Part shown: positions 25,377-60,248 of the stretch, piece by piece
Numbering within the stretch: position 1 is the stretch's first letter
Layout of the letters: every line of letters begins with the position of its first letter
Assembly (NCBI GenBank): GCA_040375445.1
Contig: JBEISK010000005.1
Location: forward strand, 3,546-67,545
Direction: 5' to 3'
Length of the DNA: 64,000 nucleotides
Source of the DNA: Gammaproteobacteria bacterium
GTDB lineage: Bacteria > Cyanobacteriota > Vampirovibrionia > Vampirovibrionales > JAJTHC01
Notes under the pieces: generated by a model
Seen by the model: only the letters and a program-made list of their open reading frames with translations
The model's database searches: none
What the model was told of the DNA's origin: nothing
Program-made: the position numbers and the translations under genes

Positions 25377-26180
25377 TTACTGCCCGATTTGTTCAAACGT
25401 CGTTTGGGTCGGTTGGGCAAGATCTCTCCAAAATTTGGTAAGGGCTCGTTTGCCTTCTTGAAATTGTTCTACGACCCGCCCATGTGTTTCGCCTTGTTTG
25501 AGTGGAGGTAAGTTCAATATAACACTTCTAGAACCCTCTGGATTCGAATCTGAAGGAAGACGCAAATTCCCAAGTGAAGCGATCAGTTCTTGTTTGATTG
25601 CTAGTTTCCCTGGAACAATCAAAGAATCAGATGTTTCTTGAGCCCAAATTGTCGGAGCATTACCAAGTCCTGCTAATTCGGTGGTGTTAAACAAACTCGT
25701 ACTGGATCCTTTTTCATTTAACGAAGCAGGTGTTATTTGAGTGGTTAAACTAGCAGAAAGAGGTGCCGAGACAAAAGCCTGTAATTTGTTGGGAGTTTTT
25801 TTAGACAAATCTGCATGATCAATTCGACTCACTAACGTGGACGAGGAGTTTACCCTGCCGAAGTAGTAAAAAAGTTTTATCGCATGAGCCAAAACCTCGT
25901 CTATTGCAGAACCAAGTTCTCTATTTCTTGAAAACTGAATTTTTTGCTCCTTAGTACGAAAACGCAGAACGTCATTGGCTGGGGTAGTCGTCCTTCTTAT
26001 GCTTGGTACAATTTTTAAGGCCATGCCCTCCCAAGGGCTATCTCGTCCAACAAAGCTATTTACTAATTCCACATACCCTTTTACAAAGGCTCCCTGTGTC
26101 TTCGAATTAGCAAAGAGTAATCCTTGTCTTTGTTGAGTTGAGTTGAGTTGAGTTGAGTTGAGTTGGAGCGGACTGGACAT
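25377..26180 (-). CDS. Hypothetical protein with 5' (CAACT)6 tract; true start may be the out-of-frame ATG at 26197
   Basis: 267-aa ORF; stronger RBS (AGAGGA) precedes ATGs at 26200/26197 in another frame. Confidence 0.65.
   Translation of the reverse strand: MSSPLQLNSTQLNSTQQRQGLLFANSKTQGAFVKGYVELVNSFVGRDSPWEGMALKIVPSIRRTTTPANDVLRFRTKEQKIQFSRNRELGSAIDEVLAHAIKLFYYFGRVNSSSTLVSRIDHADLSKKTPNKLQAFVSAPLSASLTTQITPASLNEKGSSTSLFNTTELAGLGNAPTIWAQETSDSLIVPGKLAIKQELIASLGNLRLPSDSNPEGSRSVILNLPPLKQGETHGRVVEQFQEGKRALTKFWRDLAQPTQTTFEQIGQ
26136..26165 (-). repeat. Pentanucleotide SSR (CAACT)6
   Basis: Six perfect AGTTG units on the + strand. Confidence 0.95.
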
Positions 26181-26298
26181 AACCTACTAATGTTCATCAT
26201 AAAATCCTCTACATATTAAAAAACACAAAACACTAAAGATGCTATTGTAGTTTAATATGGTTAAATAGGGTTGTTTATGACAAAAGTGTTACAACTAT

Positions 26299-26763
26299 CT
26301 AAGCGTTTAAGGTGCTCAACATCCCGACACGACGTTCGTGACGCTCCCCTTCAAAGCGAGCATTCAACCACGCTTGAGTAATCACCGTGCCATACGCCCC
26401 TGAAACAAAGCGTCCGCCCATGCACAAGACGTTAGAATCGTTATGTTCACGGCTGAGTTGAGCCAAGTACGCATCATGCGCATGCACCGCCCGCACCCAA
26501 GGGAAGCGATTAGCCGCAATCGCCACACCCACGCCTGAACCACAGGTGATAATGGCTTTAGAAATGTCCGCTTCTTGCATGAAGCGTGCCACTTTTTCAG
26601 CAATCGACGGATAGTCCACCTTATCCGTTTCGCTAAAGCATCCCAAATCTTGCACATCATAGCCTTGTTGAGACAAGTAATCCGCCAAAACAGACTTTAG
26701 GGCAAACCCAGCATGATCGCACCCTACGACGATGCGTTTGTCGATGACATTTTTAATAGTCAT
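26299..26763 (-). CDS. rpiB: Ribose 5-phosphate isomerase B
   Basis: GCDHAGF, VDYP, CGSGVGVAIAANR, REHNDSNVLCMG, FEGERHERRV. Confidence 0.96.
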   Translation of the reverse strand: MTIKNVIDKRIVVGCDHAGFALKSVLADYLSQQGYDVQDLGCFSETDKVDYPSIAEKVARFMQEADISKAIITCGSGVGVAIAANRFPWVRAVHAHDAYLAQLSREHNDSNVLCMGGRFVSGAYGTVITQAWLNARFEGERHERRVGMLSTLNA

Positions 26764-26784
26764 GATTTTACCTAACTATTGGTA

Positions 26785-27180
26785 TTAATTGTCGTGATGC
26801 TTGTGGTCGTGCGTGCAATCGTCCCCATGCACGTGATCGTCACACAAGCCCAAATGATCATGTAAGTCTACTTCAAAATCCATGCCTTCAAGCTGTTCGA
26901 TGACTTTATTGAACTCGTCTTCATCTTCAATCGATTCATAGACACGTTCTTCGCCGTCTAGCGTCACTTTCATCACCACAAACTCTTCTTCATAACCTTC
27001 TTCAGAATCGGGGGCATCCAAGGAATCACCCTGATATACCAACAAAGCATAGAGGCTACCGTCAATTTCAAACTCTTCAACAGGCTCAAAATAATGGACG
27101 TTGCCGTCTTCATCGGTGGTTTCTACCACGGCGACTTCATGCAAGTTTTTTTTCAATTCAGCATCATCAAATCCCATCAT
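26785..27180 (-). CDS. DUF1292-like acidic protein with His/Cys-rich tail
   Basis: TDEDGNVHYFE..FEIDGSLYALL..IEDEDEFNKV pattern; tail HDHLGLCDDHVHGDDCTHDHKHHDN. Confidence 0.7.
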   Translation of the reverse strand: MMGFDDAELKKNLHEVAVVETTDEDGNVHYFEPVEEFEIDGSLYALLVYQGDSLDAPDSEEGYEEEFVVMKVTLDGEERVYESIEDEDEFNKVIEQLEGMDFEVDLHDHLGLCDDHVHGDDCTHDHKHHDN

Positions 27181-27373
27181 TTCAAGTATTTCCTTTATTT
27201 AGCTGTACTTCCCGAGAAGCTTTCTAGCAGGTCACACCTTATTTAATCACAAGGGCATTTTGACGACAACCCTTTGTTTTTTCTTTGTGTTTTAGAAAGG
27301 TTTGCATTACACTAGACCTTGATATTTAATTATTTGTTTCTTTACAAGAAAATAGATAACTTGTTCCTTTTAG

Positions 27374-27584
27374 GCTGGTGGTCGTCAGAGACCTTTGCTC
27401 CGCCAAAGGTCTCCAACACCTCTAAAGGCGGTTTAAGGGGGGACGGGGGAGGACGTATTGCGTTTCTCCTCCCCTTCGTCCCCCCTTAAAAATCCCCCCT
27501 GAAACCCCACCTCGTCGCATCATTCCATTGCACGACGTCCGCAAAATGTCTCGGAAGCCTCGCATTTAGTGCTTGGACGCCTGC
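27374..27584 (-). repeat. GC-rich structured repeat, family C, copy 3
   Basis: Reverse complement aligns with 19305-19530; 27536-27572 is identical to 3768-3804. Confidence 0.9.
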
Positions 27585-27648
27585 CCATCGATTATCTCCA
27601 TTTTCGCAAAGAAGTTAATTGCAACAAAATAAAAAGGATTTAAACACC

Positions 27649-28842
27649 ATGAAATTTCTTACAGCAGGCGAGTCTCACGGGCCAGGTTTAACCATTTTAC
27701 TCGACAACATTCCCGCAGGTATTCCGATTTCGTCTGAATTAATTAACAACGATTTACGGCGTCGCCAAGGCGGTTACGGTCGTGGCGGTCGCATGTTGAT
27801 TGAAAAAGACACCGTACGTTTTTTGGCAGGCGTGCGTTTTGGAAAAACCACGGGCGCACCGATTGCGTTATTCATCGAAAATAAAGATCATAAAAACTGG
27901 GCAGGCATCATGGATGCAGAAGGTGAGCCTACTGATGAAAAAGCCTTCGTTCGTCCACGCCCTGGTCATGCGGATTTGGCAGGCTTTTACAAGTATGGTT
28001 TGACGGATTTACGAGATGCGCTTGAGCGAGCGTCCGCTAGAGAAACGGCGGCTCGTGTAGCGGCAGGTGGCGTGGCGAAAGCTTTATTAAAAGCCGTAGG
28101 CATTGATGTCTTTAGTTACGTGCATGTGCTAGGCGGAAAAGCCTTGCCCATTGGCGAAGGCTTAGATTACACGCAGGATGTAGACGCTTTTATTGCCTAT
28201 GTGGAAGGCAACAATCTGCGTTGTGCGAGTGATGATGCCACCCAAGTCGCCGTTCGTCAATACATTGATGAGGTTCGCAAAGCAGGGTCTACCTTAGGTG
28301 GTGAAGTGCATTGCGTGGCAACAGGCGTGCCAGCAGGTTTGGGCAGCTATGTGCAGTGGGATCGCAAGCTCGACGGGCAGTTGGCGCAAGCTGTGATGTC
28401 GATTCAAGCGGTGAAAGCTGTGGCGATTGGCGATGGTGAGCAGGGGTCTTTGGTAGACGGTTCCGTGTTTCACGATGAAATTCGTCTAAATGCCGACAAG
28501 CAGGTGGTTCGTCCCACGAATCGATCAGGGGGCTTAGAAGGCGGTGTGACCAACGGACAACCGCTTTTGGTTAAAGCGTGGATGAAGCCGATTGCGACCT
28601 TGATCAAACCCTTAATGAGTGTGAACTTAGACACGCAAGAAGAAGAAGTGGCTCACTTTGAACGCAGTGATGTGACGGCGGTTCCTGCCTGTGCGGTGGT
28701 GGTTGAAGCCATGACGGCATTGACGCTTGCCAAAGCCCTCACCGAAAAGTTTGGCATGGATCACTTGGGCGACATTCAAGCAGGGATTGCTCACTATCAA
28801 GCCCGTTTGACGCCAGCTCCTGTGGGCGAACATTCGACTTGA
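27649..28842 (+). CDS. aroC: Chorismate synthase
   Basis: TAGESHG, RRRQGGYGRGGRM, RPGHADL, ERASARETA, SGGLEGGVTNG, MKPIATL, ERSDV. Confidence 0.97.
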   Translation: MKFLTAGESHGPGLTILLDNIPAGIPISSELINNDLRRRQGGYGRGGRMLIEKDTVRFLAGVRFGKTTGAPIALFIENKDHKNWAGIMDAEGEPTDEKAFVRPRPGHADLAGFYKYGLTDLRDALERASARETAARVAAGGVAKALLKAVGIDVFSYVHVLGGKALPIGEGLDYTQDVDAFIAYVEGNNLRCASDDATQVAVRQYIDEVRKAGSTLGGEVHCVATGVPAGLGSYVQWDRKLDGQLAQAVMSIQAVKAVAIGDGEQGSLVDGSVFHDEIRLNADKQVVRPTNRSGGLEGGVTNGQPLLVKAWMKPIATLIKPLMSVNLDTQEEEVAHFERSDVTAVPACAVVVEAMTALTLAKALTEKFGMDHLGDIQAGIAHYQARLTPAPVGEHST

Positions 28843-28937
28843 ACTTTCTATTTACCTTCATGTATAGACAATCGACTTTCTTATGCTATACTAAGTGATG
28901 TGATTTACGCTTTTCTTTTTTTCAAGGTCTTTTTGTT

Positions 28938-29627
28938 ATGGCAACTCTCCCCACGATGTCTCCATACCTCCCTATCCACTGGGGAGCCTCCGTGCATCCA
29001 GCCCCTTCAGCAAGAGGGCCAATTAACGCATCCAGCAAAGTAAACACAACTTACCCTAGCTTGTACGATAAAGTCAAATCCGTGAGACAAGGTGGCGTTT
29101 TCATAACCTATGTCTTTACGCCACCGACACGAGCAAAAATGAGTAAATGTTCCATTTACCTTGAACAGGCGTTACGCCCCATATTGACTTCGCCCAATTG
29201 CATTCGCTACTTGGAAGAAGCGGGCTTCCCTGAAGTGAGGCAAGACAACCAACTCTTACATCAAGCTCAACAGCTTTTGGATTTAGCGTGCTTAACCTTG
29301 AGCATCAATAACGTACAACGCCCTACGAATTACCCCACTCCCCTTTATCGATTAAGTATTGAAATGAATGCCTACCTAAATGACCGCCCTTCAGAGATGC
29401 AAGCCCTAGGTATTAGAGGAATTTCAAACTATGATGCAGGGGTCTTCCACCAGTTGGCAACGAAGTTGCTATGGTCTGTCGGCGTTCAAGAAACCTATTT
29501 GACCATTCAGGAACAAGACAATTTGTTACATATTTTAATTGATGCCGCTCAAGCGTCTTTACGCATGTTGGTTTGGCAAAAGCAAGCCAGCAAAATTAGA
29601 AACAATTACAACCAGCCAAATTATTAA
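28938..29627 (+). CDS. Hypothetical protein, P/S/T-rich N-terminus
   Basis: 229-aa ORF, no family recognised. Confidence 0.7.
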   Translation: MATLPTMSPYLPIHWGASVHPAPSARGPINASSKVNTTYPSLYDKVKSVRQGGVFITYVFTPPTRAKMSKCSIYLEQALRPILTSPNCIRYLEEAGFPEVRQDNQLLHQAQQLLDLACLTLSINNVQRPTNYPTPLYRLSIEMNAYLNDRPSEMQALGIRGISNYDAGVFHQLATKLLWSVGVQETYLTIQEQDNLLHILIDAAQASLRMLVWQKQASKIRNNYNQPNY

Positions 29628-29844: not shown

Positions 29845-30402
29845 ATGCAATTCAGACAATGGGCTTCGGCGTTTACAATTATCGAGCTTAGTATTATCAT
29901 TGCAGTCATCGGTATTATGTCAGCTGTGGTCGTCGTGATCTTTAAAAATACAGAAGAAGCTACAGACAAAGCCTCGTTAGAAGCAGGTATGTCGACCTTT
30001 CAAAATGTCTTGGTGGAAGGCAGTCAACGATCTGACGTCGCCCCTAGAAATATTGATCTACGTGCCATTCTTGCTGCGGTAGACCCTCAAGCTGCCTATG
30101 CAGGTTTTACAGGAGATGCTACCGCTTATACTACTGCAATTGCTGGTGTGCCAGCAAACACTCAATATCAATGGACGTTTAATAATGGGGCACCCCCAAC
30201 CGTAACTTTGCAGACCAAAGCTCGTCGAGCTGCTGACTGGTCAGGATCAAGAAGCCTAACCTTTCGTGTTAACGATTGTGGAACGGTTTGCCCTGTTACC
30301 TTAACTGGCTTTGACAATTATGAATTAATACCAAACACGAACACCTTTTGTGAGGCTGATCCTGTTGAACAAGACTGCAATGTGATTTTGAGAAAGCCTT
30401 AA
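29845..30402 (+). CDS. Type IV pilin-like protein
   Basis: A|FTIIELSIIIAVIGIMSAVVV class III signal (E at +5); four Cys near the C-terminus. Confidence 0.8.
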   Translation: MQFRQWASAFTIIELSIIIAVIGIMSAVVVVIFKNTEEATDKASLEAGMSTFQNVLVEGSQRSDVAPRNIDLRAILAAVDPQAAYAGFTGDATAYTTAIAGVPANTQYQWTFNNGAPPTVTLQTKARRAADWSGSRSLTFRVNDCGTVCPVTLTGFDNYELIPNTNTFCEADPVEQDCNVILRKP

Positions 30403-30476
30403 TGATATAATGCTATTTATCGGCTATACTGAAGAAGTGTCCGCAACAGGGGATTTATTTTGTGACGTTTCCATCG

Positions 30477-30962
30477 ATGCCTGCTTATTTTAACGCCTTT
30501 ACCCGTCTTGAAATGGGAGTAAGCGTCTTGATTATGGCGATTCTGTTTATCTTTGCTTGGGTGACCTATGAACGTGCCTTTGAAGAAACCGATGCCAAAG
30601 CCCTTCAGCAAAAGCTTCTTGACTTTCAAAACGCTTTGATCGAAGGCGGCCAACGTAGCAATCTTCCCCCTAAAGACTTAGACCTCAAAATGGTCATAGA
30701 AACCATGCCTGTTGAACCCTTCTACCAATGGAAAAACCTAGACGATTCAGGTGTCGATCAACGCATTGAATTGCGTATGACTCCAAAGAACCGTCCTTCA
30801 TTGACTGAACTACGTGCGCTCACGTTTCGGGTGAGTGATTGTGGAGATGTTTGCCTCGTTACCTTAACAAACTTTAGTTATTACCACCTTAGTCCCAATC
30901 CTAATGCCAGTTGCCCTGAAGACCCTGTTTCAACGGTGTGCAATTACTTGTCTAATGAATAG
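30477..30962 (+). CDS. Type IV pilin-like protein, paralog of upstream gene
   Basis: A|FTRLEMGVSVLIMAILF; shares FQN.L.EG.QRS...P...DL and LTFRV.DCG.VC motifs with 29845. Confidence 0.72.
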   Translation: MPAYFNAFTRLEMGVSVLIMAILFIFAWVTYERAFEETDAKALQQKLLDFQNALIEGGQRSNLPPKDLDLKMVIETMPVEPFYQWKNLDDSGVDQRIELRMTPKNRPSLTELRALTFRVSDCGDVCLVTLTNFSYYHLSPNPNASCPEDPVSTVCNYLSNE

Positions 30963-30985
30963 GAAGTGATAAATAGGAAACTCTT

Positions 30986-35024: not shown

Positions 35025-35209
35025 ATAGAGAGCCATTTTTAGAGTTTTATGTACAGGTTGCTAGACAAGGCGCCTAGATTTTTTGTGCGGGCGTGTGGAT
35101 TAAGTTTTGTAACAATTGTTTGTGACTGGCAGGATTTAAAATTGAGGGTGTTTTATACTGATGTCTTCCCCTAGACGTTCTTGTTCAATAAAACCTAAAG
35201 GATCTAACC

Positions 35210-35795
35210 ATGTTGTCTGTCTCCTCTCCTCTCCTCTCCTAATACACCCACTCGTGTCGCAAAGGGGGCTTCTCAGTCGGCTCATCAGCAACGAGACGGA
35301 GCACTCTTTAAGGCACTAGTTAACAATACCCATCCGAATCAAAACAAAATTATTTACACTCTTCCACCCTTAATACTTAGGTTATCCCCTGATATTATTC
35401 CAGCAAACGACCAAACAGGCTTTTTCTCAAATGTCAATACTTTCCCTGGAGGTACCTCTTTTAACTTTAAGAACTTCTACAGTTTTAGGATTAAGAGTCC
35501 GACTCAGAAAGGTTGGCTTATTGCAGTGGGAGAACATTTACCCAAAGTCAGAGCTATAGATGAAATAAGCCAGACTAAAGAAATTGTCAGTGACCCAAAA
35601 TTGAAAGAAGAACTAGATTCACTAGAGATTGAATTGGTTACAGATCTAGCAAAGCAAGTCCCTAATTACACGATTAAGAACAAAGAAGGTGTGCTTACAT
35701 TGATTCGAGATATTGTTCTAAGCTTGGGGGAGCCTTGGAGTCCAGAAAACATAGAGAAGGTTATAGCCAAAATGAATGAGTATTCCTTTTCTTAA
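35210..35795 (+). pseudogene. SSR-frameshifted (putatively phase-OFF) hypothetical gene
   Basis: AAAGGA RBS + ATG 35210 reads MLSVSSPLLS*; the frame from 35241 is stop-free (NTPTRVAKG...) into ORF 35526..35795; a (CTCCT)4 tract lies at the junction. Confidence 0.75.
35221..35240 (+). repeat. Pentanucleotide SSR (CTCCT)4
   Basis: ctcctctcctctcctctcct, starting 11 nt after the A of ATG 35210. Confidence 0.9.
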
Positions 35796-38840: not shown

Positions 38841-38849
38841 GGTTTAGGG

Positions 38850-42163: not shown

Positions 42164-44266
42164 CTACTCTTCCATGTTAATGGACGCCACTGCCTGCACC
42201 TTCACATCAGGGATGAGTTCGCTGTACGCCAAAACCACCGAATTGGGCAGGTGTCGGTCTAACAGCTCAAACAACGGCAAGCGAATACGAGGCGAGCATA
42301 AGATCACAGGCGGTCTTCCATAATGCTGTTGCACCATGCGAGACGTGTCACTAATGGCTTGAATCAACTGTTGCACCTGCATCGGATTCAACAAGAACAT
42401 GACGCCCAATTCCGTGCGTTGGCAGGCTTCATCCAACACGGTTTCCCATTCGTTAGACAAGGTCGCCGCCAGTAACTGCTTGGTTTTATCCGCATGAGAA
42501 ATACAGATTTGACGACCTAGTGAAGCCCTTAATCGTTCTGAAAGCGTGTCAGATTCTCGGCTAAATCGAGCGTAATCACTCAAGCGTTCAAAAATGAATT
42601 GAATGTCTTTAATCGACACTTTTTCTCGAATGAGGTTGACGAAAATCTTACGTAAGTCATTGGGCGTCAACATATTCGGCACGAGTTCTTGAATGACACT
42701 TGGATCACTACCCCGCATCAGCTCCATGAGCTTAAGTACATCAATTTTCGTCATCACATCATCGACGTATTTAATCACCACCATTTGCAAGTGAGTAATC
42801 ACGGCATCGGTCGATTCAACCGCCACGGTCTGCAATTGTTCAGGAATATCCGCTTGAGCCACCCATAAGGCAGGCACGTTCAAGGCGGAATCCGTGCCTT
42901 GAATGACTTGAGCAGGCTGCGCGACGCCATAGGTGTCAAAATAACTTTGCAAAATCATGTAATAACCAGGGTAAACCTTGCCTGTGGCGACAGGGTTGCC
43001 TCGAATGGAAATGAGGTATTCGTAAGGTTCAATTTCGGTGGAATCCATAATGCGGATGTTGGGTAGAATGAAGCCGAGTTCATCGGTTAAGCGAGTCCGC
43101 AGACCTGCAATTTTACCGAGCAACTGCCCGTCTTGCTCAGGGTCTGCAATTTGAAGGAGGCTTGCCCCCACTTGAAGACTAAGTACATCGACGCCCATTC
43201 GTTCGTACATACGGTTGGGATCAATCATTTGTTGCATGTTTTCTTGCACTTCTTGCAATTCACCCATTTGAGCCTGAACATCGCTGGTGATGAAGACGCT
43301 AAACGCCATGCCCCCTAGAATCATAGCAAACAGGACAAAAGGCCACCAGCTTAAACCTGTAATGGAAGAGGTCACCGCAATAAAGAGCAAGAACATCGCC
43401 GCAAAAATAAGACCATACGGCTTGCCACGAAACTGGGTGAAGAAATCTTTCGCCAAACTGTCGGAAACACTGGTGGTACGCGTCAGTGTAATCCCAATCG
43501 CCACGGACATAATCAAGGCAGGAATCTGTGAAGCCAAGCCGTCACCGATTGTTAGAATCGTGTATTTATTGACGGCTTCCATAATCGGTAAGCCTTTCAT
43601 CAAAACCCCAATGGCAATACCCCCCACGATGTTAATAATTGTGATGATAATCGCCGCAATCGAATCTCCTTTGACGAACTTCATGGCACCATCCATCGAA
43701 CCCAACAGGGACATTTCCCGTTGCAAGTTTTCACGCAATTGCCGTGCTTGATCAGGTCCAATAAAGCCTGCGTTTAAGTCGCCATCGATCTGCATTTGTC
43801 GACCGCCCAAAGAGTCGAGAGCGAATCTCGCCCCAACTTCCGCCACACGTTCCGACCCCTTGGTAATAACCATAAAGTTCACGGTTAAAATGATTAAGAA
43901 CAAAATCGCCCCAACCACCATGTTACCGCCTGTAACGAATTCTCCGAAGGCTTGCACCATCTGCCCCGCATGACCATGTGCCAAAACGGCACGAGTAACC
44001 GCAATCCCCAACGCCAATCGAAACAGGGTAGACACCAAAATCAAAGACGGAATCGCCGCCAAATCCAGAGGTTGCTTAACGTACAAGGACATCATGAGCA
44101 AGACCACGGAAAGGCTGATGTTAAAGGCAATGGAAGCATCCATAAACCAATCAGGCAAAGGCACCAAAATGATCAAAATTAGAATAAGCACGCCAACAAC
44201 CAGCAATATCTCACTAATAGGAGGAATTGCAAAGGCGTTGTTTGGAGGAGCGTCGGACATCATCAT
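42164..44266 (-). CDS. flhA: FHIPEP-family type III export protein FlhA/SctV
   Basis: TLFRLAL, VITKGSERVAEVGARF, DGAMKFVKGD, LTIGDGLASQIP; cytoplasmic domain with LIREKVSIKD and VLAYSEL. Confidence 0.92.
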   Translation of the reverse strand: MMMSDAPPNNAFAIPPISEILLVVGVLILILIILVPLPDWFMDASIAFNISLSVVLLMMSLYVKQPLDLAAIPSLILVSTLFRLALGIAVTRAVLAHGHAGQMVQAFGEFVTGGNMVVGAILFLIILTVNFMVITKGSERVAEVGARFALDSLGGRQMQIDGDLNAGFIGPDQARQLRENLQREMSLLGSMDGAMKFVKGDSIAAIIITIINIVGGIAIGVLMKGLPIMEAVNKYTILTIGDGLASQIPALIMSVAIGITLTRTTSVSDSLAKDFFTQFRGKPYGLIFAAMFLLFIAVTSSITGLSWWPFVLFAMILGGMAFSVFITSDVQAQMGELQEVQENMQQMIDPNRMYERMGVDVLSLQVGASLLQIADPEQDGQLLGKIAGLRTRLTDELGFILPNIRIMDSTEIEPYEYLISIRGNPVATGKVYPGYYMILQSYFDTYGVAQPAQVIQGTDSALNVPALWVAQADIPEQLQTVAVESTDAVITHLQMVVIKYVDDVMTKIDVLKLMELMRGSDPSVIQELVPNMLTPNDLRKIFVNLIREKVSIKDIQFIFERLSDYARFSRESDTLSERLRASLGRQICISHADKTKQLLAATLSNEWETVLDEACQRTELGVMFLLNPMQVQQLIQAISDTSRMVQQHYGRPPVILCSPRIRLPLFELLDRHLPNSVVLAYSELIPDVKVQAVASINMEE

Positions 44267-44346
44267 TTATTTGGATTCTTTACGAGTTTGGCATTTATTC
44301 ATTATAGAGGATGAACATTACATTAGTATAAAGTATGTAGAAAGGT

Positions 44347-45264
44347 TTAATGTTCGTCGAAGGCAGGAGCATCCCACGTTTGGAGGGTAGCATCGCCTTC
44401 AAGCAAGTGATCAAACTCAGCTTCGGCGGAAGATTGCGAGGCGATCGCCACATTCGGCAAGCCTAAAATCTTGCGAATCATGTGAAGTTGCGTGGTAAAC
44501 GTCGCATCAATTTGCCCACCAGACGTTTCTACAATGCAACTACCTAAGTCCACTTCGGCGTCGCCCACCACAATAATATGGCGCTGCACTTCGCCTTGCC
44601 ACGTTTCTTCATGTTCTTTAATATGTTGACGCAAAAATTTCACATCGCTGGGGTGTACTTTAAACACCACTTCTTTCTGGGTGCGATCCACCTTGCCTAA
44701 AACATCAAGAGCGATACCCACGACCAAGGCACGATCGCACGACAATTCCACCTTAATCAAGCGCTGGGCGATCGCCATTGCCATGGGGGCAATGTCTTGC
44801 ACAGATTTTTCAAGCACTTGGCTTTTAATCGTATCCAACTGGTCTAAAATCTGCCAAATCGCTTTGGACGATTCTTCGGCTTCTTTCATGCCTTCGACGT
44901 AACCATTTTGCTTGGCTTCTTCAAAGCCTGCTTGATACCCTTGTGGATGTCCATCCTGATAACCTTTGTTATAACCCGTATCATAAGCGTCTTGATAGAT
45001 GGCTTGCGGGTCTAAAGGGGCTTCATGGTCACTACGGCGACGCTTATAGGTGCTGGGGTCTTGGGGAACTTGTGTTTCTTCCCAAACCAGTTGATTCAAG
45101 AAATCATCGTCTGACGATGTGGGGGCTGTTGGTGAAGACACACCTGCTTGCTGATGAGCCACTTGGGCTAGCCACGGAGGCAACGGCTCCCCTGTGGGAA
45201 GCGTCCCATGACTGGTGGGGTTTTGTGTGGCTTGTTGTGAACGAATCCGTTTAATCAGAGGCAT
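44347..45264 (-). CDS. fliH: FliH/SctL ATPase-regulator
   Basis: GxxxG run (GYNKGYQDGHPQGYQAGFEEA), KVHPSD, GSCIVETSGGQIDA. Confidence 0.9.
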   Translation of the reverse strand: MPLIKRIRSQQATQNPTSHGTLPTGEPLPPWLAQVAHQQAGVSSPTAPTSSDDDFLNQLVWEETQVPQDPSTYKRRRSDHEAPLDPQAIYQDAYDTGYNKGYQDGHPQGYQAGFEEAKQNGYVEGMKEAEESSKAIWQILDQLDTIKSQVLEKSVQDIAPMAMAIAQRLIKVELSCDRALVVGIALDVLGKVDRTQKEVVFKVHPSDVKFLRQHIKEHEETWQGEVQRHIIVVGDAEVDLGSCIVETSGGQIDATFTTQLHMIRKILGLPNVAIASQSSAEAEFDHLLEGDATLQTWDAPAFDEH

Positions 45265-45307
45265 AAGGGGTTTCTCTTTATAGTGGGAGCTTCAGTCGTG
45301 TTGAGAT

Positions 45308-46510
45308 TTAGGCAAGAATGGTATTGTAGTAATTGAATAGGGCTTGTTCGAGTTTCGGCGTCCACTGCGGGATTTGATTATACCCGTTGGAGTGCTTATG
45401 TACAAGTCCTGCTGCCTTAAATAGACGTTGTATTTCAATACGTTCACCTTGCATCAAGTTTTCTAGCACCGTTCGGTTGTCAGGGCGTGCTAAAATATCA
45501 CATAGGGCGTGACGTAGGCGTTTTTCTTGGGCATGGGGATCTTCAGCCACCGCCTTAACGTTGTGTCTAAAGTCATTAAGCTTTTCAAGCACTTCATTCA
45601 TGGGCAGTTCTTGGGCAATATTTTCTACATTCATATAATGAATAATCTGATTACCCACCCCAGAAGGGAACTGATTCAACCATTCATTTTGAAGTGGAGG
45701 GGCTTGCGTCGTTAAAAACAAAGCGAGTGCCGCCAATTTAAGTTGCACATGCTTGGTATTCTGATGAGGTATCGCCACAGGTTCTGGCGGAGGGGCAGGG
45801 GCATACATCGCTTCATAAGACTGAAGGGCTTGAGGCGACGGCATGGTCTGAATAGGCACTTGGCGATTCATGGGTGAAGCTGGAACGTCTTTTTCATCAA
45901 AAAGAGGAGCCTCTTCAAGAGGCAGTTCAGCTTGAGGGGTTTTATTAAATCGATTCGTGGGAGCATCAGGGGGCATGTCTTCTTGCCCAATCGGGCCATG
46001 AATATTTTCATATTCGCCCAAATAATGGTGCAAGGCACTGGCGACCATTTGCTCCATCCAGCTTTCAAGTTGGGCGTCATCAAACTGCAATTCGGGCGTC
46101 GCTTCTTGCCCTACGGTGGCGGAAACAAACTGCTTGGCTTGAAAGAAGGCATCTTTCGCCAAACCTTGCAAAATGACTGATTTAGGCTCGCCTTTTAGAT
46201 TGTGTTCTTGAGCCTTTTCACTGGCATGAATAATTGCATGGGTAAATAGCGACAAAACCTTATAGCAGTGCCCCACATTAAAGGCCAAATAAGGAGCCTT
46301 AGGATCCTGCGGTTGAAACCCTGGTTCTTGCTGAAGTAAGCCCACCGCCACTTGAATAAAGTGAGCCGTAATATCCGCCGAACGTTTAATTTCACTGATA
46401 TTTAAGCCTGAACTACTGAGGGCTTCCGTGACTTTCTCGGCAAACTCCACCGAAAGGGCTTCGGCGTTCATGGAAATAATCAAAGGATCCACAGGGGGAC
46501 GTTTTGCCAT
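45308..46510 (-). CDS. Hypothetical protein in the fliG position, with a FliG-like segment
   Basis: Between fliF and fliH; LKLAALALFLTTQAPPLQNEWLNQFP..QIIHYM resembles one FliG helical repeat. Confidence 0.55.
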   Translation of the reverse strand: MAKRPPVDPLIISMNAEALSVEFAEKVTEALSSSGLNISEIKRSADITAHFIQVAVGLLQQEPGFQPQDPKAPYLAFNVGHCYKVLSLFTHAIIHASEKAQEHNLKGEPKSVILQGLAKDAFFQAKQFVSATVGQEATPELQFDDAQLESWMEQMVASALHHYLGEYENIHGPIGQEDMPPDAPTNRFNKTPQAELPLEEAPLFDEKDVPASPMNRQVPIQTMPSPQALQSYEAMYAPAPPPEPVAIPHQNTKHVQLKLAALALFLTTQAPPLQNEWLNQFPSGVGNQIIHYMNVENIAQELPMNEVLEKLNDFRHNVKAVAEDPHAQEKRLRHALCDILARPDNRTVLENLMQGERIEIQRLFKAAGLVHKHSNGYNQIPQWTPKLEQALFNYYNTILA

Positions 46511-46531
46511 GCGTGAGTCTCCTTGTTTTCC

Positions 46532-48286
46532 TTATTCTGCGGAACTTAACCATTGAGCAATATTCATATCCTGCGGACGAATCGCTGGGGCATCGTTGGA
46601 CGCATTCTTCATGTTTTCATTCAATTCCTTCAGGGCATCTTTCAGTTTTTCAACGCTCTGTTGGCGGGTGCGTTCAAGCACTTGATGCTGTTCTTGTTGG
46701 GCTTGCATCAACTGTTCATTCAGCTGTTGCTGATACTGCAAGTGCGTTTGCGTTTCTTCCGCATGTTGACGCAATTGCTGTAATTCGTTAATCGCCGAAT
46801 CCAAGGTTTCTGCGGTATGCTGTGTCTTTCCACTATTACCCATAAACATCATAATGGCAACCGCTCCTATTACCGTAATCGCCATCCAAGGGAGCCACGT
46901 CATCACGCCAGCCGCCGTTTCAGGGCTTAAACCTGGCAATAAAAAGCCAGCGGTATTCATCGGCGGTTCAGGTAAAGGATCTTCTCCTGCCAAAGGCTTG
47001 GGGTTTTCAAAATCGGTGCGAGCCAAGCTCACATTCAACGGATTGACTCGTGGGCTTGCGGAACGAGCAATCAAGACTTGTAAATCTTCAGGCGGAATGT
47101 TAGGGTAGTAATCGTCATCAATCGTCACCGCAATCGAAACATCTTCCACCATACCCGGTACGCTGGTTTCCACCCATTGCGTATGCCCGTTTTGATAGCT
47201 CACTTCCGTGCCTTCACGCAAGTAGCCGTCGTTACTGCTACTTTTGGATATATTTTCCATAGACTGCATGGATTGACCGATCGCCACTTTACTGTCGAGT
47301 TCAGGGGGTAAGAATCCCGAAACAGGTCCACTGGCTTTACCGTTGGAACTGGAACTTCCTCCACTACCACCGAGTGTTTCTTGAAAACGTTGCTTACTTG
47401 CCACTACTGATTTGGATGGATCAAAGTTCTGCACCATGGTTTCTTTGGGCGATTCACGCAAGAAGGTCGAAACTGTCACCACATAACGCCCTTCGCCAAT
47501 GAGCTTGTCGAGTTGAGCCGCCACTTTTTGCTTCATGTAAAAATCTTGATCCGCAGCCTTGTCTTGCAATTCTAAGGCGGAATCTAGCACACTATTATAG
47601 GTATTGCCGTTGGTGTCCGACAGTGCCACATGCTTGGCTTCCAACCCTTGAATACCCCCCACCATTAAATTGATGACGGCTCTGACTTTGTCTCGTGTGA
47701 GCCGTTCACCAGGAGGCAACGTCACTTGCACCGCCGCCGACGGAGGCTTACGATCGCTGGCAAAAAGCGTGGGGTCTGCTATTGAAATTTTCACATGGGC
47801 GTCTTCCACAGGGGGCATTTTGCGGATGATTCTGGCCAAATCGCCTTCTTGCCCACGAATGAGTTTGATCTGCTTTTCTTCACGGCTTGCCATCATATCG
47901 CTGGTGTCAAAGGCTTCCATGCCGAGCTTGCCGTCCATTAAGCCTGATTGAGCGAGAGTCAGCAGAGCTTGATCCCGATCGTTTAAGGTGGCATCTTCCG
48001 CAAACATCAACGACACTTTGCCCCCTGTGCCAGCGAGGGTATCGAGGCGGATGTCTTGCCGAGAGAGTAAGGCTCTGATTTCGACGGCTTTACCTGCGGC
48101 GATGTCGGTGGCTAAAGGGAGCTGTTCTTCGCTCAGGACTTTCGCCCCTTCATCGACCTTGACTGCTTTGCCTCCACTGCCTGCGACGGCTGTGATGATA
48201 ATAATCACCACAAGCAGAACCACCCCTCCGATGATCGAAAAGAAGAGTCTTCTATTTTCCATTAAGGCTTGCAATTGTGGAGGCAC
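46532..48286 (-). CDS. fliF: MS-ring protein FliF/SctJ-like
   Basis: Two TMs; GMEAFDTSD..SREE..RGQEGDLARII..VEDAHVKI..LF..PPSAAV..HVALSDTNG (YscJ/FliF ring motif). Confidence 0.85.
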   Translation of the reverse strand: MPPQLQALMENRRLFFSIIGGVVLLVVIIIITAVAGSGGKAVKVDEGAKVLSEEQLPLATDIAAGKAVEIRALLSRQDIRLDTLAGTGGKVSLMFAEDATLNDRDQALLTLAQSGLMDGKLGMEAFDTSDMMASREEKQIKLIRGQEGDLARIIRKMPPVEDAHVKISIADPTLFASDRKPPSAAVQVTLPPGERLTRDKVRAVINLMVGGIQGLEAKHVALSDTNGNTYNSVLDSALELQDKAADQDFYMKQKVAAQLDKLIGEGRYVVTVSTFLRESPKETMVQNFDPSKSVVASKQRFQETLGGSGGSSSSNGKASGPVSGFLPPELDSKVAIGQSMQSMENISKSSSNDGYLREGTEVSYQNGHTQWVETSVPGMVEDVSIAVTIDDDYYPNIPPEDLQVLIARSASPRVNPLNVSLARTDFENPKPLAGEDPLPEPPMNTAGFLLPGLSPETAAGVMTWLPWMAITVIGAVAIMMFMGNSGKTQHTAETLDSAINELQQLRQHAEETQTHLQYQQQLNEQLMQAQQEQHQVLERTRQQSVEKLKDALKELNENMKNASNDAPAIRPQDMNIAQWLSSAE

Positions 48287-53608: not shown

Positions 53609-53646
53609 CAGACGCTTCGCCGAATAGGACTTTTTCTTTAAGTTCG

Positions 53647-55945: not shown

Positions 55946-55969
55946 GCTATTCTATAGCTAAAGCTAACG

Positions 55970-56004
55970 AAACGCCCTTTGCTCAACGAGTAGAGGGCGT
56001 TTTT
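55970..56004 (+). terminator. Intrinsic terminator
   Basis: aaacgccct.tgctc-aac-gagtagagggcgttttt. Confidence 0.75.
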
Positions 56005-56050
56005 ATGCTATAGTTACAAGGTATAGTCGTCTTTAGAGTTTTCTGTGTAT

Positions 56051-56521
56051 ATGAAAATACTCGGTATCGACCCTGGATTAGGACGCATCGGCTTTGGGCT
56101 GATTGATGTAAGCGTTCGTAATAATCCCCAAGCACTCGGCTGGGGGATTATTGAAACCACGCCAAAAGCACCCATTGGCAAGCGTTTGGTGGAAATACAT
56201 CATGATGTCAAAGCACTCATTGAAGAGGCGGCTCCCGATGTGATTGCGATTGAATCGCTCTTTTATTTTCGCAACAATACAACGATCGTACCTGTGGCTC
56301 AAGCCCGTGGGGTGATTTTGCTCTTGGCGGAACTCGCTGGCGTGCAGACGGTTGATTATACGCCGATGCAGGTCAAGCAAGCCTTGACAGGCTACGGCAA
56401 GGCGGAAAAGCACGAGGTCACCGAAGCGGTGATTTTGCGACTGAACCTACTCAAAAAACCCACCCCCGACGACGCCGCCGACGGTCTAGCCATTGCACTG
56501 ACTCACAGTCAATTCATTTAA
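56051..56521 (+). CDS. ruvC: Holliday junction resolvase RuvC
   Basis: ILGIDPG, IAIESLFY, QARGVI, YTPMQVK..GYGKAEK, DDAADGLAIA. Confidence 0.97.
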   Translation: MKILGIDPGLGRIGFGLIDVSVRNNPQALGWGIIETTPKAPIGKRLVEIHHDVKALIEEAAPDVIAIESLFYFRNNTTIVPVAQARGVILLLAELAGVQTVDYTPMQVKQALTGYGKAEKHEVTEAVILRLNLLKKPTPDDAADGLAIALTHSQFI

Positions 56522-56660
56522 TCTATCGAATACTATAGAGTCATGTGTTTTGACTGAAAGGCTTGTCATTTTTATGTTTTGGGTATAATGGGGGTATGTC
56601 CCCCTATTGGTGAGTTTTTCAACCTGCCAAACCTATTTAATCTAAAAAGGATGCTTCCCC

Positions 56661-58145
56661 ATGACGGCACTGAAAGAACGTAATTCCATTGAACAAACCG
56701 TAAACTCCCGCCTTACCAAAATTGTTGCCACGCTCGGGCCCGCCAGCCGTCACGCTGAAGGCATCTACAGCCTTATTTCATCAGGGGCAAACGTCTTTCG
56801 CTTTAACTATTCCCACGCTGAATACGAAGAGCTCGAAAAAGCGTATGTGAATGTCCGTAAAATCTCCAAAGAACTCGGCAAGCCTGTCGGTATTTTAAGC
56901 GATTTGCAAGGCCCTAAGTTCCGTGTTGGTTTCTTTGAAGGCACCGACGGCATACCTTTGAAAGCGGGGCAGTCTCTACGTTTTGCCTACAGCGAAAAGA
57001 ACGACGGGGGCAATGAAGACTTAATCGTCTGTAATGTCAAACCCATGTTTGAAGCCTTTGAAATCGGCAACACAGTTTTGTTCGACGACGGCAACATCCA
57101 AATGAAAGTAAGCTCTCGTGTAAGTTCCACCGAAGTCATCGTAGAAGTCTTGACAGATGGCACCTTAAAGCAACGTAAAGGCATCAACGTGCCTGAAATC
57201 ACCATTCCTGTGGCGGCTTTGTCCGACAAAGACAAAACCGATTGTTTGTTTGCCTTAAAGCAAGGCACCGATTTTATGGCCCTTTCCTTTGTACAACGCC
57301 CTGAAGATGTCATTGAATTGCGGGATTTCATGCTCGCTAACGGATGCACACCTTCCAATATCCCCAAAATCATCGTCAAAATCGAAAAGCCTCAAGCGGT
57401 TGAGCGTTTGGATGACATCCTCGCTGAAGCGGATGGTGTCATGGTCGCTCGTGGAGACTTGGGTGTGGAATTACCTGCCGAACAAGTCCCTGCGGCTCAA
57501 AAAATGATGATCCGTAAATGTATTGAAGCAGGCAAGCCTGTTATTACCGCCACGCAAATGTTGGAATCTATGACCTCTGCCCCTGTGCCAACTCGTGCGG
57601 AAGTCTCTGATATTGCCAACGCTGTTTATGACGGTAGTGATGCCACAATGCTTTCGGGCGAATCCGCTTATGGCGACTACCCCACGGAATCCGTCCAAGT
57701 CATGGCAAAAGTGCAAGCCGAAGCTCGCAAGCATTACGGCGAGTTTACTAGCTTTGACAGCCTTTGCTATGAAGAATACCCTGAATCTGTATCGCCTGAA
57801 ATTGTGGCTCGTGCAGCTGTTGATGCCACTTGGGCCGGTGAAATTGAAGCCATTGTGGTCATGAGTTATTCAGGTGCCATGGCTCAACGTGTGTCCAAAT
57901 ATCGCCCTGAAGTGCCGATTATCGCCTTGACGCCAAATGAATCCGTTTTCTATCAATTGACCTTGCTTTACGCCGTTTTACCTGTTCAATTTAACGCATC
58001 TGAAACCACGGAAGCCACCCTTGCAAGTATTCGTACTTGGTTGCTTGAAAAAGGCTTGGTCTCTTCAGGAGCCAACATAGTGGTCTGTGCAGGGACGACT
58101 GAATTAGCGGGATTAAGCAACAGCCTCTTGATCACCAAAGTATAA
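56661..58145 (+). CDS. pyk: Pyruvate kinase
   Basis: TKIVATLGPAS, DLQGPKFR, IVKIEK, MVARGDLGVE, ATQMLESM, PTRAEVSD, MLSGESA. Confidence 0.98.
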   Translation: MTALKERNSIEQTVNSRLTKIVATLGPASRHAEGIYSLISSGANVFRFNYSHAEYEELEKAYVNVRKISKELGKPVGILSDLQGPKFRVGFFEGTDGIPLKAGQSLRFAYSEKNDGGNEDLIVCNVKPMFEAFEIGNTVLFDDGNIQMKVSSRVSSTEVIVEVLTDGTLKQRKGINVPEITIPVAALSDKDKTDCLFALKQGTDFMALSFVQRPEDVIELRDFMLANGCTPSNIPKIIVKIEKPQAVERLDDILAEADGVMVARGDLGVELPAEQVPAAQKMMIRKCIEAGKPVITATQMLESMTSAPVPTRAEVSDIANAVYDGSDATMLSGESAYGDYPTESVQVMAKVQAEARKHYGEFTSFDSLCYEEYPESVSPEIVARAAVDATWAGEIEAIVVMSYSGAMAQRVSKYRPEVPIIALTPNESVFYQLTLLYAVLPVQFNASETTEATLASIRTWLLEKGLVSSGANIVVCAGTTELAGLSNSLLITKV

Positions 58146-58191
58146 GAAACCCCCTGTTTAAAAGACTTATAGTTTAGAGGAGTTTTCGTCC

Positions 58192-59493
58192 ATGAACGCC
58201 ACGTCTTCAACGAATACAACGAATGTCTTCACATTTACTTTGCCGGATATTGGTGAGGGAGTAGCTGAAGGCGAGATTATGGCATGGTTTGCGGAAGAAG
58301 GGCAAGCCCTTCAAGAAGATCAAGCCCTCTTAGAAGTGATGACCGATAAAGTCACGGTCGAAATACCTGCACCTCGGGCGGGGATTTTACATAAAAAATA
58401 CGTCCAAGTCGGTGATGTCGTGCCTGTTGGCAAAGCCTTGGTTGATATTCATTTTGGGGATGCCCCAGCGGAGGCCCCCTTCTCAAAAAGCCTCGAAAAA
58501 AAACCCGACGTTTCAACCTCAAGCATTGCTCCAGTACAAATGCCCCCTCAAACGCCAAAAGAGAAGTCAATAGTGGAGCCTCCCCCTCAAACGACTTGTG
58601 CATTAACTCACGCCGTGTTAGCCGCACCTGCCACACGCCAACTTGCCAAGCGTTTAAATGTGGATATTCACACCGTAGTAGGAACAGGGCTTCACGGACG
58701 GATTCGTCCTGAAGATGTGGAAGATCACGCACGCCGAGTCAGTGTGCCACAAGGGGCAACGTCCATTCATACCAGCATTCTACGTCAAAGCCCTTTAGAA
58801 GCAAAAGATATTCCGTATACAGGCATTCGCAAAAAAATTGGCGAACGACTTTTAGCCAGCACGAAAAACATCCCGAGCTTTGCGTATGTGGATGAAATCC
58901 GCATGGACAAGGTCGAAGCCTTACGCCAAGAACTCAAAGGCATGGCAAGTGAAGCAGGCGTGAAGCTTACGCCCTTGACCTTCGTTTTAAAAGCCGTGAC
59001 CCTTGCCTTGCAAAGCTTTCCCCAGCTTAATAGCCGTTTAAATGACGCTCAAACGATCATTCATCAGCATGCGGGCATCCACTTGGGAGTGGCGGTAGAT
59101 GCCCCCATTGGACTTGTGGTACCTGTCATTAGCAATGCCGAGCATTTACACCTATTTGAGATTGCCAAACGTGTTCAAGAACTGGGTATGCTTGCTCGAG
59201 ACGGAAAACTCAAACCTCAGCAGCTGCAAGGTGGAACTTTCACCGTTTCAAGCATCGGCAGTATCGGCGGACTATTAGGGATTCCTATTATCAACGCCCC
59301 TGAAGTGGCTATTTTAGGCGTGAATGCCTTGCGTAAGGTCGCTGTGGTCAATGAGCGAGACGAGATTGTGGTCGGCAAAGTCTTAAACCTGTCGCTTAGT
59401 GCGGATCACCGTGTCGTCGACGGAGCTGATGCCGCTCGCTTTGTCAACCTGCTGAAGTCTCTCTTAGAATCGCCCGCTCAACTGCTTTTGTAG
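58192..59493 (+). CDS. 2-oxoacid dehydrogenase E2 (dihydrolipoamide acyltransferase)
   Basis: Lipoyl domain EVMTDKV, E3-binding AAPATRQLA..GTGLHGRI, catalytic DHRVVDG. Confidence 0.95.
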   Translation: MNATSSTNTTNVFTFTLPDIGEGVAEGEIMAWFAEEGQALQEDQALLEVMTDKVTVEIPAPRAGILHKKYVQVGDVVPVGKALVDIHFGDAPAEAPFSKSLEKKPDVSTSSIAPVQMPPQTPKEKSIVEPPPQTTCALTHAVLAAPATRQLAKRLNVDIHTVVGTGLHGRIRPEDVEDHARRVSVPQGATSIHTSILRQSPLEAKDIPYTGIRKKIGERLLASTKNIPSFAYVDEIRMDKVEALRQELKGMASEAGVKLTPLTFVLKAVTLALQSFPQLNSRLNDAQTIIHQHAGIHLGVAVDAPIGLVVPVISNAEHLHLFEIAKRVQELGMLARDGKLKPQQLQGGTFTVSSIGSIGGLLGIPIINAPEVAILGVNALRKVAVVNERDEIVVGKVLNLSLSADHRVVDGADAARFVNLLKSLLESPAQLLL

Positions 59494-59621
59494 GGAACTA
59501 GCTTAAGCACCTCTTAAAATGCTTGCCTTTTAAGCATTACTATATTAAAATGCACTCAATGTTATGCTTTTACAGGCGAAACTTATTACTTGAACCCCTG
59601 ATCAATTGAGGACACTTTTTT

Positions 59622-60248
59622 ATGAAAACGGCTTCGTTCAATGCGTTTACTAGTTCACCTATGGCGATGCAACACCCTTTGGCAAAGAATCAAAAAGCGT
59701 TGGGGCAATCCCAGCGTGAAGGTTTCAGTATTTTAATCCCCTTAAGTCCTTCAGAAGTAGCGGCAAAAAACTCATTAAATTATTCAGCTTTGAAACCTAT
59801 AGACTTGAAAAACATACTCCGTGTTCCTCCTGAAGAAGGTATCACTTTTACGGATGCTGCTAAGAATGATTCTAGCTATAACAGAAGAATACTTAACTCA
59901 ACCGAAGCATCGAAGTTGTCTTTACGGAATCTAAGTTATGTATTGAATCCATACGGCTTGGACATTGGTATTGTTATAAATCCAGATAGATTGGTACGCC
60001 CTAGGTTTACGGCGCTAATCACCCCAAAACAAATGAAAGGAGAAAGATCTAGGCTTGTAATCCCAGTTCTCGGAATCAAAGATCCGATTCAGGTAGGAAC
60101 AAAATTCACTTTAGCTAAAGATGCAGCAACATCCATCATAGATGAAGTTATAAGGGTATTTTCGGAGAAAGAACTAAAAATTATAAAGGAAAGGCTTATA
60201 GGACAAAGGGGTCCCCTTAACGCACTTATTTCAGGCTTATCCATTTAA
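59622..60248 (+). CDS. Hypothetical protein
   Basis: 208-aa AT-rich ORF with GAGGA RBS; no family recognised. Confidence 0.7.
   Translation: MKTASFNAFTSSPMAMQHPLAKNQKALGQSQREGFSILIPLSPSEVAAKNSLNYSALKPIDLKNILRVPPEEGITFTDAAKNDSSYNRRILNSTEASKLSLRNLSYVLNPYGLDIGIVINPDRLVRPRFTALITPKQMKGERSRLVIPVLGIKDPIQVGTKFTLAKDAATSIIDEVIRVFSEKELKIIKERLIGQRGPLNALISGLSI

Follow-up and report, generated by a model that had tools for sequence, protein, structure and literature searches.

A Q-R-x-G leader on unrelated, rapidly diverging proteins as a candidate Sec-independent export signal in one genus of Vampirovibrionales

Short N-terminal elements that recur on otherwise dissimilar proteins are known from several systems. 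Salmonella SPI-2 effectors carry a conserved N-terminal translocation region, WEK(I/M)xxFF, and type III effectors undergo terminal reassortment. PEXEL (RxLxE/Q/D) and RxLR are host-targeting motifs of Plasmodium and the oomycetes that lie behind a Sec signal peptide, with PEXEL being cleaved, and polymorphic toxins have a junction motif, such as the VENN of CdiA. The opa genes of Neisseria contain CTCTT pentamers within the region coding for the leader peptide, and Opa leaders are Sec signal peptides. For classical type III signals, such as those described by the Pseudomonas syringae Hop rules, we know of no conserved sequence motif. Here, we analyzed a 64,000-nucleotide stretch (the window) of contig JBEISK010000005.1 from an uncultured Vampirovibrionales bacterium of lakes (assembly GCA_040375445.1), which is related to Vampirovibrio, a predator of algae. 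A preliminary description of this stretch had singled out four orphan open reading frames (ORFs), called A to D below, whose disordered leaders end in R-[QDE]-G, and had proposed them as substrates or effectors of a type III secretion system (T3SS). The reading that we favor, with a probability of roughly 0.55, is that A, C, and D are part of a repertoire of ca. 56 to 70 small, mostly orphan proteins confined to one genus, the common leader of which would be a Sec-independent export or targeting signal.

Each of the described systems resembles this arrangement in part. As in SPI-2 effectors and terminal reassortment, a short N-terminal element is common to unrelated proteins, and new bodies appear behind the same leader. 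However, the motif and the composition differ, the leader is only 15 to 50 residues long, and the family is far larger for the size of the genome; moreover, the only gates in this non-photosynthetic relative of cyanobacteria are of the flagellar type, and dependence on type III export is at this point a candidate property. Like the opa pentamers, pentanucleotide repeats in the leader (here, CAACT and TCTCC) shift the frame of a variable protein, but the leaders have no hydrophobic core, and poly-C tracts coding for Pro runs are the commoner switch. The motif shares with PEXEL and RxLR its very short length, its position 20 to 60 residues from the N terminus, and its presence on a large, fast-evolving, lineage-specific repertoire; unlike these, it is bacterial, no signal peptide precedes it, and cleavage at Q-R-x-G is putative. 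Disordered, Ser-rich N termini without early acidic residues recall type III signals, although a conserved motif is present here and the aliphatic/Pro rule for position 3-4 is not enriched. Finally, as with VENN of CdiA, a short motif lies between an N-terminal part that is constant and C-terminal parts that can be exchanged, but the constant part is a short leader, and neither known toxin domains nor evident immunity genes were found.

The arrangement that we propose is as follows. Each gene would be driven by its own sigma-70-type promoter and would begin with a leader that is predicted to be disordered, acid free, rich in S/T/P/N/Q, and devoid of a hydrophobic core, in which a poly-C tract or a 4- to 5-nt repeat would often turn the reading frame on or off. 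The leader would close in Q-R-x-G (x being mostly Q, and the first Q being replaceable by A or L), and directly after the G a folded body would follow that is unrelated between genes and appears to evolve by positive selection or outright replacement. The leader may act as a Sec-independent export or targeting signal and Q-R-x-G as a putative recognition or cleavage site at the junction, while the bodies may be secreted effectors or surface proteins locked in an arms race with prey, phage, or grazers. We found no description of a Q-R-x-G leader in the literature on Vampirovibrionales/Melainabacteria secretion and Vampirovibrio phase variation, and ca. 3 to 4% of the genes in a widespread freshwater lineage appear to share this one undescribed N-terminal tag. 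Phase switches combined with positively selected bodies are the usual mark of molecules at a parasite/predator-victim interface, and how non-photosynthetic cyanobacterial relatives attack their prey is, to our knowledge, largely unknown. The motif provides a sequence handle by which candidate interface proteins can be listed for every genome of the genus, and it makes a secretory role of the order-wide second type III gate testable.

The leader and its motif

The four ORFs and their motif strings lie where the preliminary description had placed them, and what it said of them was confirmed in part. They are mutually unrelated (lowest pairwise BLASTP E = 0.56), and BLASTP found no paralogues of any of them in the 1.91-Mb, 71-contig genome. 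The leaders have no Sec/Tat hydrophobic core (best 10-residue Kyte-Doolittle window, -0.22 to 1.08), all four proteins fall below every Pfam and NCBIfam cut-off, and the members in the window stand singly, flanked by housekeeping genes. The simple sequence repeat switches reported for two of the four are also real (CAACT in A and TCTCC in C). The central claim, namely that orphans of unrelated sequence have a functional N-terminal signal in common, holds for A, C, and D, in which leader and motif are conserved, but probably not for B. Given that the orthologues of B read RQAG or RQGY, that its leader contains D and K, and that hypervariability is not seen in it (dN/dS 0.16), B was probably included by chance and is a nonmember; it is present in 9/9 congeneric species, and a search of the ESM Atlas with it gave no usable match. 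A, C, and D themselves are not homologous; they represent one leader shared by unrelated bodies. Open frames are kept in congeners for A (in G005, at 46% identity), C (in G005 and G002), and D (in G005), and none of the four ORFs was found in 31 genomes of other genera, bar a weak match of A at E 0.006.

R-[QDE]-G is only modestly enriched in N termini, and the true form of the motif is Q-R-x-G. Among the N-terminal 75 aa of 1487 genes, R[QDE]G was observed 68 times, compared to 38.9 ± 5.8 in 200 shuffles, whereas QR.G was observed 60 times (12.2 ± 3.5 in 500 shuffles; maximum, 26) and QRQG 24 times (0.67 in 500 shuffles; maximum, 4). Within the first 60 aa, QRQG occurs 22 times, versus 7 elsewhere, a 13-fold enrichment per residue. 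In an unbiased scan of 12,622 short N-terminal patterns QRQG ranked 7; the patterns above it were six from a 21-nt tandem repeat miscalled as ORFs and one Leu-rich signal-peptide pattern. A six-frame scan of frames of at least 80 aa yielded 276 QR.G sites, 123 of them no more than 75 aa from the first start, and a leader-like stretch (at least 55% S/T/P/N/Q/A and at most one D/E in 20 aa) precedes 60 of these 123, against 4/118 of the sites further in. By a stricter count, 49/93 near-start sites are leader-like, against 4/111 further in, and the control patterns QK.G, QR.A, and G.RQ gave 0/32, 3/24, and 3/23. It is extremely improbable that the shared string is the product of chance, a danger to which the preliminary description itself had drawn attention. 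A tripeptide is short, B does look like chance, and the per-residue enrichment of R[QDE]G over the first 60 aa is only 1.4-fold; the excess of QRQG, the leader-like stretches near starts, and the invariance of the motif across alleles (see below) speak otherwise, and the shuffle, position, and allele controls refute chance for A, C, and D.

Four sites with other middle residues or no space for a leader were removed, which left an analysis set of 56 genes. In about 11 further genes the first Q is replaced by A or L, and the family is estimated at about 56 to 70 genes in the 1.9-Mb genome; many leader genes were missed by the gene caller owing to poor codon-usage scores. Leader composition is distinctive (P, 13.5%; S, 13.9%; T, 10.6%; D, 0.3%; E, 0.4%). 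At -45 to -21 from the motif, a region outside the selection filter, D and E account for 4/532 residues, versus 198/1680 at +1 to +30. A hydrophobic 10-residue window (Kyte-Doolittle value of at least 2.0) occurs in 2/54 leaders, versus 357/1487 genes overall, and a membrane-like stretch occurs in 3/56 bodies. An alignment of 32 of the 37 long leaders (three near-duplicate paralogues and two doubtful members having been dropped) revealed a second box, [FLY]-[ST]-P(-P), 17 to 22 residues upstream of the motif. Leader genes are preceded by clear TTGACA-N17-TAnnAT promoters and by GAAAGG ribosome-binding sites, TTGACA being found upstream of 14/50 members, compared with 70/1590 genes overall. As a separate observation, a 271-aa orphan at 6024-6839 starts MSLNPTSLVNTPATSPTAYVPLNQRKDHKL and has a leader-like N terminus that closes in QRKD, not QRxG; it may be a decayed or variant member of the family.

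The bodies behind the leader have little in common, the 56 sequences falling into 53 BLASTP clusters. When 53 bodies were scanned with Pfam (the three members in the window, scanned separately, reached no cut-off), four exceeded a cut-off: one Metallophos (calcineurin-like phosphoesterase), two pentapeptide-repeat proteins, and one sigma-70 protein, the last of which is probably a chance member of the set. No known toxin family was found among these 53. An AF2 model of C, built from three sequences and with a mean pLDDT of 65, gave residues 1 to 30 a pLDDT of <50 and placed the first strand at residues 34 to 39, 3 residues past the G of QRDG. Foldseek returned 0 matches in the PDB at E <= 0.001 with this model, and in a wide VIA-align search with it the best hits (Z up to 7.5) were helical hairpins only, so no fold was assigned. 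The model of D (pLDDT, 42.8) was unusable.

Conserved leaders, diverging bodies, and repeat switches

The boundary marked by the motif is also the boundary of conservation. In eight public metagenome alleles of D, overall identity falls to 59%, but residues Q17 to G34 are invariant (18/18 columns), and variation begins at residue 35. For A, S9 to F23 (STQLNSTQQRQGLLF) is invariant in 5/5 alleles that are as little as 45% identical overall, and S22 to F34 of C is nearly invariant across 5 alleles. Compared with the close species G005 at the DNA level, D is identical at 198/200 positions upstream, 101/102 in the leader, and 392/522 in the body, where dN is 0.359 and dS 0.107 (ratio, 3.3; Nei-Gojobori), the leader dN being 0. 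dN/dS is 1.5 for C, and A is saturated (dS 0.85). Since the dS of the D body equals the genomic background, its divergence reflects amino acid change, not imported DNA. These figures show that the leader is under purifying selection and that the body is hypervariable. Parts of A and C have no metagenome contig cover in X2 and X3 at a likeness of at least 85%, which fits hypervariability but is no proof of it.

Elsewhere in the genome, bodies appear to have been exchanged outright. At syntenic loci whose flanks are 92 to 97% identical, the leader is retained and the body often replaced: on contig C65, 33/34 leader residues match while the bodies share 24% identity, and the corresponding leader and body identities are 0.88 and 0.34 on contig C12 and 0.71 and 0.23 on contig C22. 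Two syntenic loci retain leader and body alike. Such a pattern, with identity falling sharply past the motif, might be expected if the 5′ module were mainly a DNA device, i.e., a promoter, a switch, and a recombination junction for cassette swaps, with no role for Q-R-x-G in the protein. The motif Gly is GGG in 24/43 instances, versus 22% of Gly codons genome-wide, and the Pro box upstream is often plain TTTAC(C)n; both would suit such a device. We nevertheless regard this account as very unlikely. Over the same 43 instances, Arg is encoded by CGC, CGT, CGG, CGA, and AGA and Gly by all four of its codons, on which ground a DNA-level motif was rejected; because these codons vary synonymously between genes, Q-R-x-G acts at the protein level. 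Reversed or near patterns are not enriched, the dS of the D body is unremarkable, and QR[ST]G is retained by the Metallophos orthologues from each of the 10 species of the genus, even though their leaders differ by indels and their identity is 38 to 43%.

Many leaders contain a tract that could throw the gene out of frame. A homopolymer of at least 8 nt occurs in 17/56 leader regions (16 of them runs of C on the coding strand, the longest being C16, and one a run of T) and a 4- to 5-nt repeat in 5/56, while the 5′ ends of other genes have such homopolymers in 55/1552 cases and short repeats in 3/1552. A repeat within the 5′ coding region, as is typical of contingency loci, was found altogether in 22/56 leaders, versus 58/1552 other genes. 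Twenty-one tract-bearing leaders divide into 11 that are ON, with an in-frame upstream ATG, and 10 that are OFF, with out-of-frame ATGs only, although metagenome assemblies can misstate the length of homopolymers and the OFF count is possibly inflated.

The two switches in the window vary in length between populations, and the length sets the frame; this comparison rests on assembled contigs, so that the differences are those between populations and alleles. For C, two extra TCTCC units (10 nt, extra TCTCCTCTCC) were found in two other lake metagenomes (2/4 runs). Alleles P0014 and P0015 are ON and start MLPVSSPLLSSPNTP, whereas P0013, P0016, and the window are frame-shifted. Because the ATG at 35210 and the ORF lie in different frames, C is switched off in the window. 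The four homologues of A share the start MMN..RL.PVR.. but not the number of NSTQL repeats, allele P0010 having one extra, and the 91%-identical P0009 has one CAACT unit fewer than the window. It is because of this one additional unit that the conserved MMN... start is out of frame in the window; the only ATG in frame there has no ribosome-binding site, and A likewise reads as OFF. Metagenome contigs break at 26122-26178, in the repeat region of A.

Distribution and the route of export

The window belongs to a lineage that is common in fresh water, twenty freshwater/lake metagenome runs from 12 studies containing it in whole or in part. Its FlhA is 92 to 94% identical to those of Vampirovibrionales metagenome-assembled genomes, 63% identical to that of Vampirovibrio chlorellavorus, and ca. 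60% identical to those of Gastranaerophilales. A profile of the leader matched 35 times in this genome, 21, 25, 23, and 10 times in four congeners, and 3 to 6 times in five others, several of which are fragmented assemblies; 31 genomes of other genera gave 0 to 3 weak matches each. The divergent congener G007, a complete genome, has 17 leader-like sites near starts, versus 6/102 further in. In V. chlorellavorus the leader model found a single match at E 0.58, and in a 400-kb sample of G011 (genus g3).R.G was leader-like in 9/62 cases and.K.G in 15/87, i.e., there was no excess. Metallophos homologues in three other genera have an S/T/P leader followed by [VL]R[NSQ]G. As judged from these profiles, the leader family is restricted to one genus.

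Several known routes were considered. A Sec signal is not apparent, given the scarcity of hydrophobic windows noted above (2/54 leaders), nor is a Tat signal, as the motif has a single Arg and no hydrophobic core accompanies it. Double-glycine leaders do not fit, since the genome has no match to PF03412 (C39 peptidase, found in leader-cleaving ABC exporters) and the motif is R-x-G. In the 94.6%-complete genome we found no VirB4 (the type IV ATPase), phage-type sheath, VipB, type VI secretion system, or C39 peptidase. For the only cultured model a type IV system has been put forward, in a report whose passages considered here make no mention of type III (PMC4451040); the proposed type IV system was not found in this genome. 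Parts of a type IV pilus or type II system are present, including three secretins and four T2SSE-type ATPases, but these routes are unsuitable because they need a Sec or Tat step and the leaders have no hydrophobic core. Prepilin-like processing, considered for Q-R-x-G-F-[ST], was rejected; the true pilins of this genome have K-x-x-[GA]|FTLIE and a hydrophobic helix, and the leaders have neither E+5 nor the helix. With respect to the pilins themselves, two adjacent pilin-like genes at 29845-30402 and 30462-30962 have Ala, not Gly, before the FT(I/R)(I/L)E box, as do several other pilins of the genome. As for the secretins, two are encoded by tandem genes with long Gly/Ala/Ser low-complexity inserts at contig C43:107666-111685, ca. 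1.4 kb from a leader gene whose (CTCCT)4 tract is OFF.

What the genome does possess is two type III core sets, with two each of FlhA, FliPQR, FliF, and FlhB. The best NCBIfam matches of FlhA, FliP/FliQ/FliR, and FliF in the window are flagellar families, but FlhA (633 versus 772), FliQ, FliR, FliF, and also FliH are below the equivalog cut-offs, FliP alone being above. The second set scores higher: FlhA (828), FliP, and FliR exceed the cut-offs, with FliQ falling slightly short (87.3 versus 88.9). The ORF at the fliG position (45308-46510) and an 811-aa ORF at 19707-22142 have no family match, and the genome has six flagellin genes. When three rules for P. syringae type III signals were applied, 48/50 leaders had no D/E in the first 12 residues and 32/50 had at least 10% Ser. 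Because other systems were not found and the leaders are Ser rich and acid free, type III export is the leading candidate route, a plausible one that we propose tentatively and mainly by elimination. More speculatively, Q-R-x-G leaders would form a new, cleavable, Sec-independent class of signal that is read by the divergent second type III gate of the Vampirovibrionales, flagellum derived and with an origin separate from that of known injectisomes, and that sends phase-variable, rapidly diversifying effectors into or onto algal or cyanobacterial prey; this fuller scheme is unlikely to be right in all its parts.

Some of the same features could be read as those of a toxin system. Here, the leader would be exported by a non-type III route (ABC/type I-like, vesicles, or an unknown machine) and removed at Q-R-x-G, the bodies being variable toxins or adhesins directed against prey or competitors. 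The short conserved leader, the demarcating motif, and the swappable bodies at syntenic loci do resemble the logic of polymorphic toxins and leader peptides, several members lie in tandem (on contigs C17, three times, C37, C44, and C70), and the secretins and T2SSE-type ATPases are at hand. Nevertheless, we consider this unlikely, albeit worth keeping in view: a C39 peptidase was not found and the motif is not Gly-Gly, the 53 scanned bodies have no known toxin domain, no obvious immunity gene lies behind the members in the window (a systematic search for immunity genes was not made), and the type II and type IV pilus routes face the difficulty already described.

Several points weigh against the leader as an export signal and against type III as its route. 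The export and cleavage reading is drawn from DNA contigs, our gene calls (1616 genes) are crude, the leader-like filter is partly circular, and the dN/dS values were obtained for a single pair of species with a simple Nei-Gojobori script. Of the four original ORFs, B misfits, and the uncertain OFF count has been mentioned. Elimination of other routes was carried out on a genome that is 94.6% complete, with TolC- and HlyD-type type I components outside the search. Only the lack of early acidic residues clearly fits the type III rules, the aliphatic/Pro rule being satisfied by 26/50 leaders and 661/1427 other genes. No flagellar late (sigma-28-type) promoters were seen, sigma-70-type promoters being present instead, which speaks against a link to the flagellar regulon, and no chaperone genes were noticed next to leader genes, without a systematic search for them. 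Finally, at least one FlhA is encoded in 41/41 Vampirovibrionales relatives and at least two in 39/41. The co-distribution with T3SS loci proposed in the preliminary description therefore could be examined but did not separate the hypotheses: because gates are order-wide and leaders are abundant in one genus only, the presence of type III does not predict the leader. A search for the receptor or protease by comparing gene content was unworkable, since the divergent congener G007 also has the family.

That the leader has no known tie to an export machine, and that its distribution follows none of the secretion systems tested, might instead mean that the proteins stay inside the cell. The leader would then be an intracellular tag, such as a degron, a signal that directs the protein to a pole or organelle, or an element recognized by a protease or chaperone peculiar to the genus, and disordered, acid-free N termini can indeed act as protease-recognition tags. 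However, phase-variable tracts in 22/56 leaders, dN/dS values above 1, and body replacement are hallmarks of an outside adversary and are unusual in purely internal regulation. Hence, we think it rather improbable that the leader is an internal tag, and we continue to favor export or targeting, for which the junction motif would be the recognition or cleavage site.

Feature coordinates and other repeats

Table 1. Positions of the leader genes, their motifs and switches, and the type III gene sets (window coordinates unless a contig is named)
Feature	Position	Strand	Basis
Member A, 267-aa orphan: leader MSSPLQLNSTQLNSTQ, QRQG, variable body	25377..26180	-	Allele comparison
QRQG motif of A (residues 17-20, in STQQRQGLLF)	26121..26132	-	Read from sequence and alleles
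Pentanucleotide repeat in leader of A: five full CAACT plus CAAC, coding for (NSTQL)n	26132..26161	-	Repeat scan, which counts six GTTGA units
Upstream ATG of A (ATGATG with ribosome-binding site), out of frame in the window	26198..26200	-	Start MMN... in all four homologues
ORF B, 229-aa genus-conserved orphan with VRQGG (KSVRQGGVF), RQG at residues 50-52	28938..29627	+	Probably nonmember
Member C, 195-codon open frame: leader, QRDG, variable body; no in-frame start at present	35208..35795	+	Alleles
ATG of C, in another frame than the ORF; MLSVSSPLLS, then stop	35210..35212	+	Translation
(TCTCC)4 repeat switch inside leader of C	35220..35239	+	Repeat scan
QRDG motif of C (residues 28-31, in HQQRDGALF)	35289..35300	+	QRDG in 4/5 alleles, QREG in 1/5
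Member D, 208-aa orphan: 30-aa leader, QREG, body apparently under positive selection	59622..60248	+	Alleles, dN/dS
QREG motif of D (residues 31-34, in GQSQREGFSI)	59712..59723	+	Q17-G34 invariant in 8/8 alleles
FliP/FliQ/FliR-like export-gate genes, divergent type III set; candidate route	15529..17610	+	NCBIfam
FlhA-like, FliH-like, 400-aa ORF without family, and FliF-like genes, divergent type III set; candidate route	42164..48286	-	NCBIfam
Second type III set	Contigs C20:5521-7674, C28:87813-89702, C56:17718, C44:7774, C51:4269	n/a	NCBIfam

Two other kinds of repeat were encountered. A dispersed repeat of ca. 220 bp with G/C-rich palindromes (window, ca. 27365-27585 and 19305-19530) is present in ca. 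70 copies, which are spread over 42 contigs and in 33 cases lie at a contig end, and accounts for a 30- to 50-fold spike in metagenome-contig depth. Rfam recognized no family in 27100-27700, and a link between this repeat and the leader genes was considered and rejected, 3/56 of the latter lying within 300 nt of a copy, compared with 94/1616 genes overall. The 21-nt tandem repeat arrays, which read (DFRGQKT)n in translation, occupy five loci (C55:10412-10609, C8:41113-41346, C46:15226-15414, C28:2240-2401, and C7:24122-24355).

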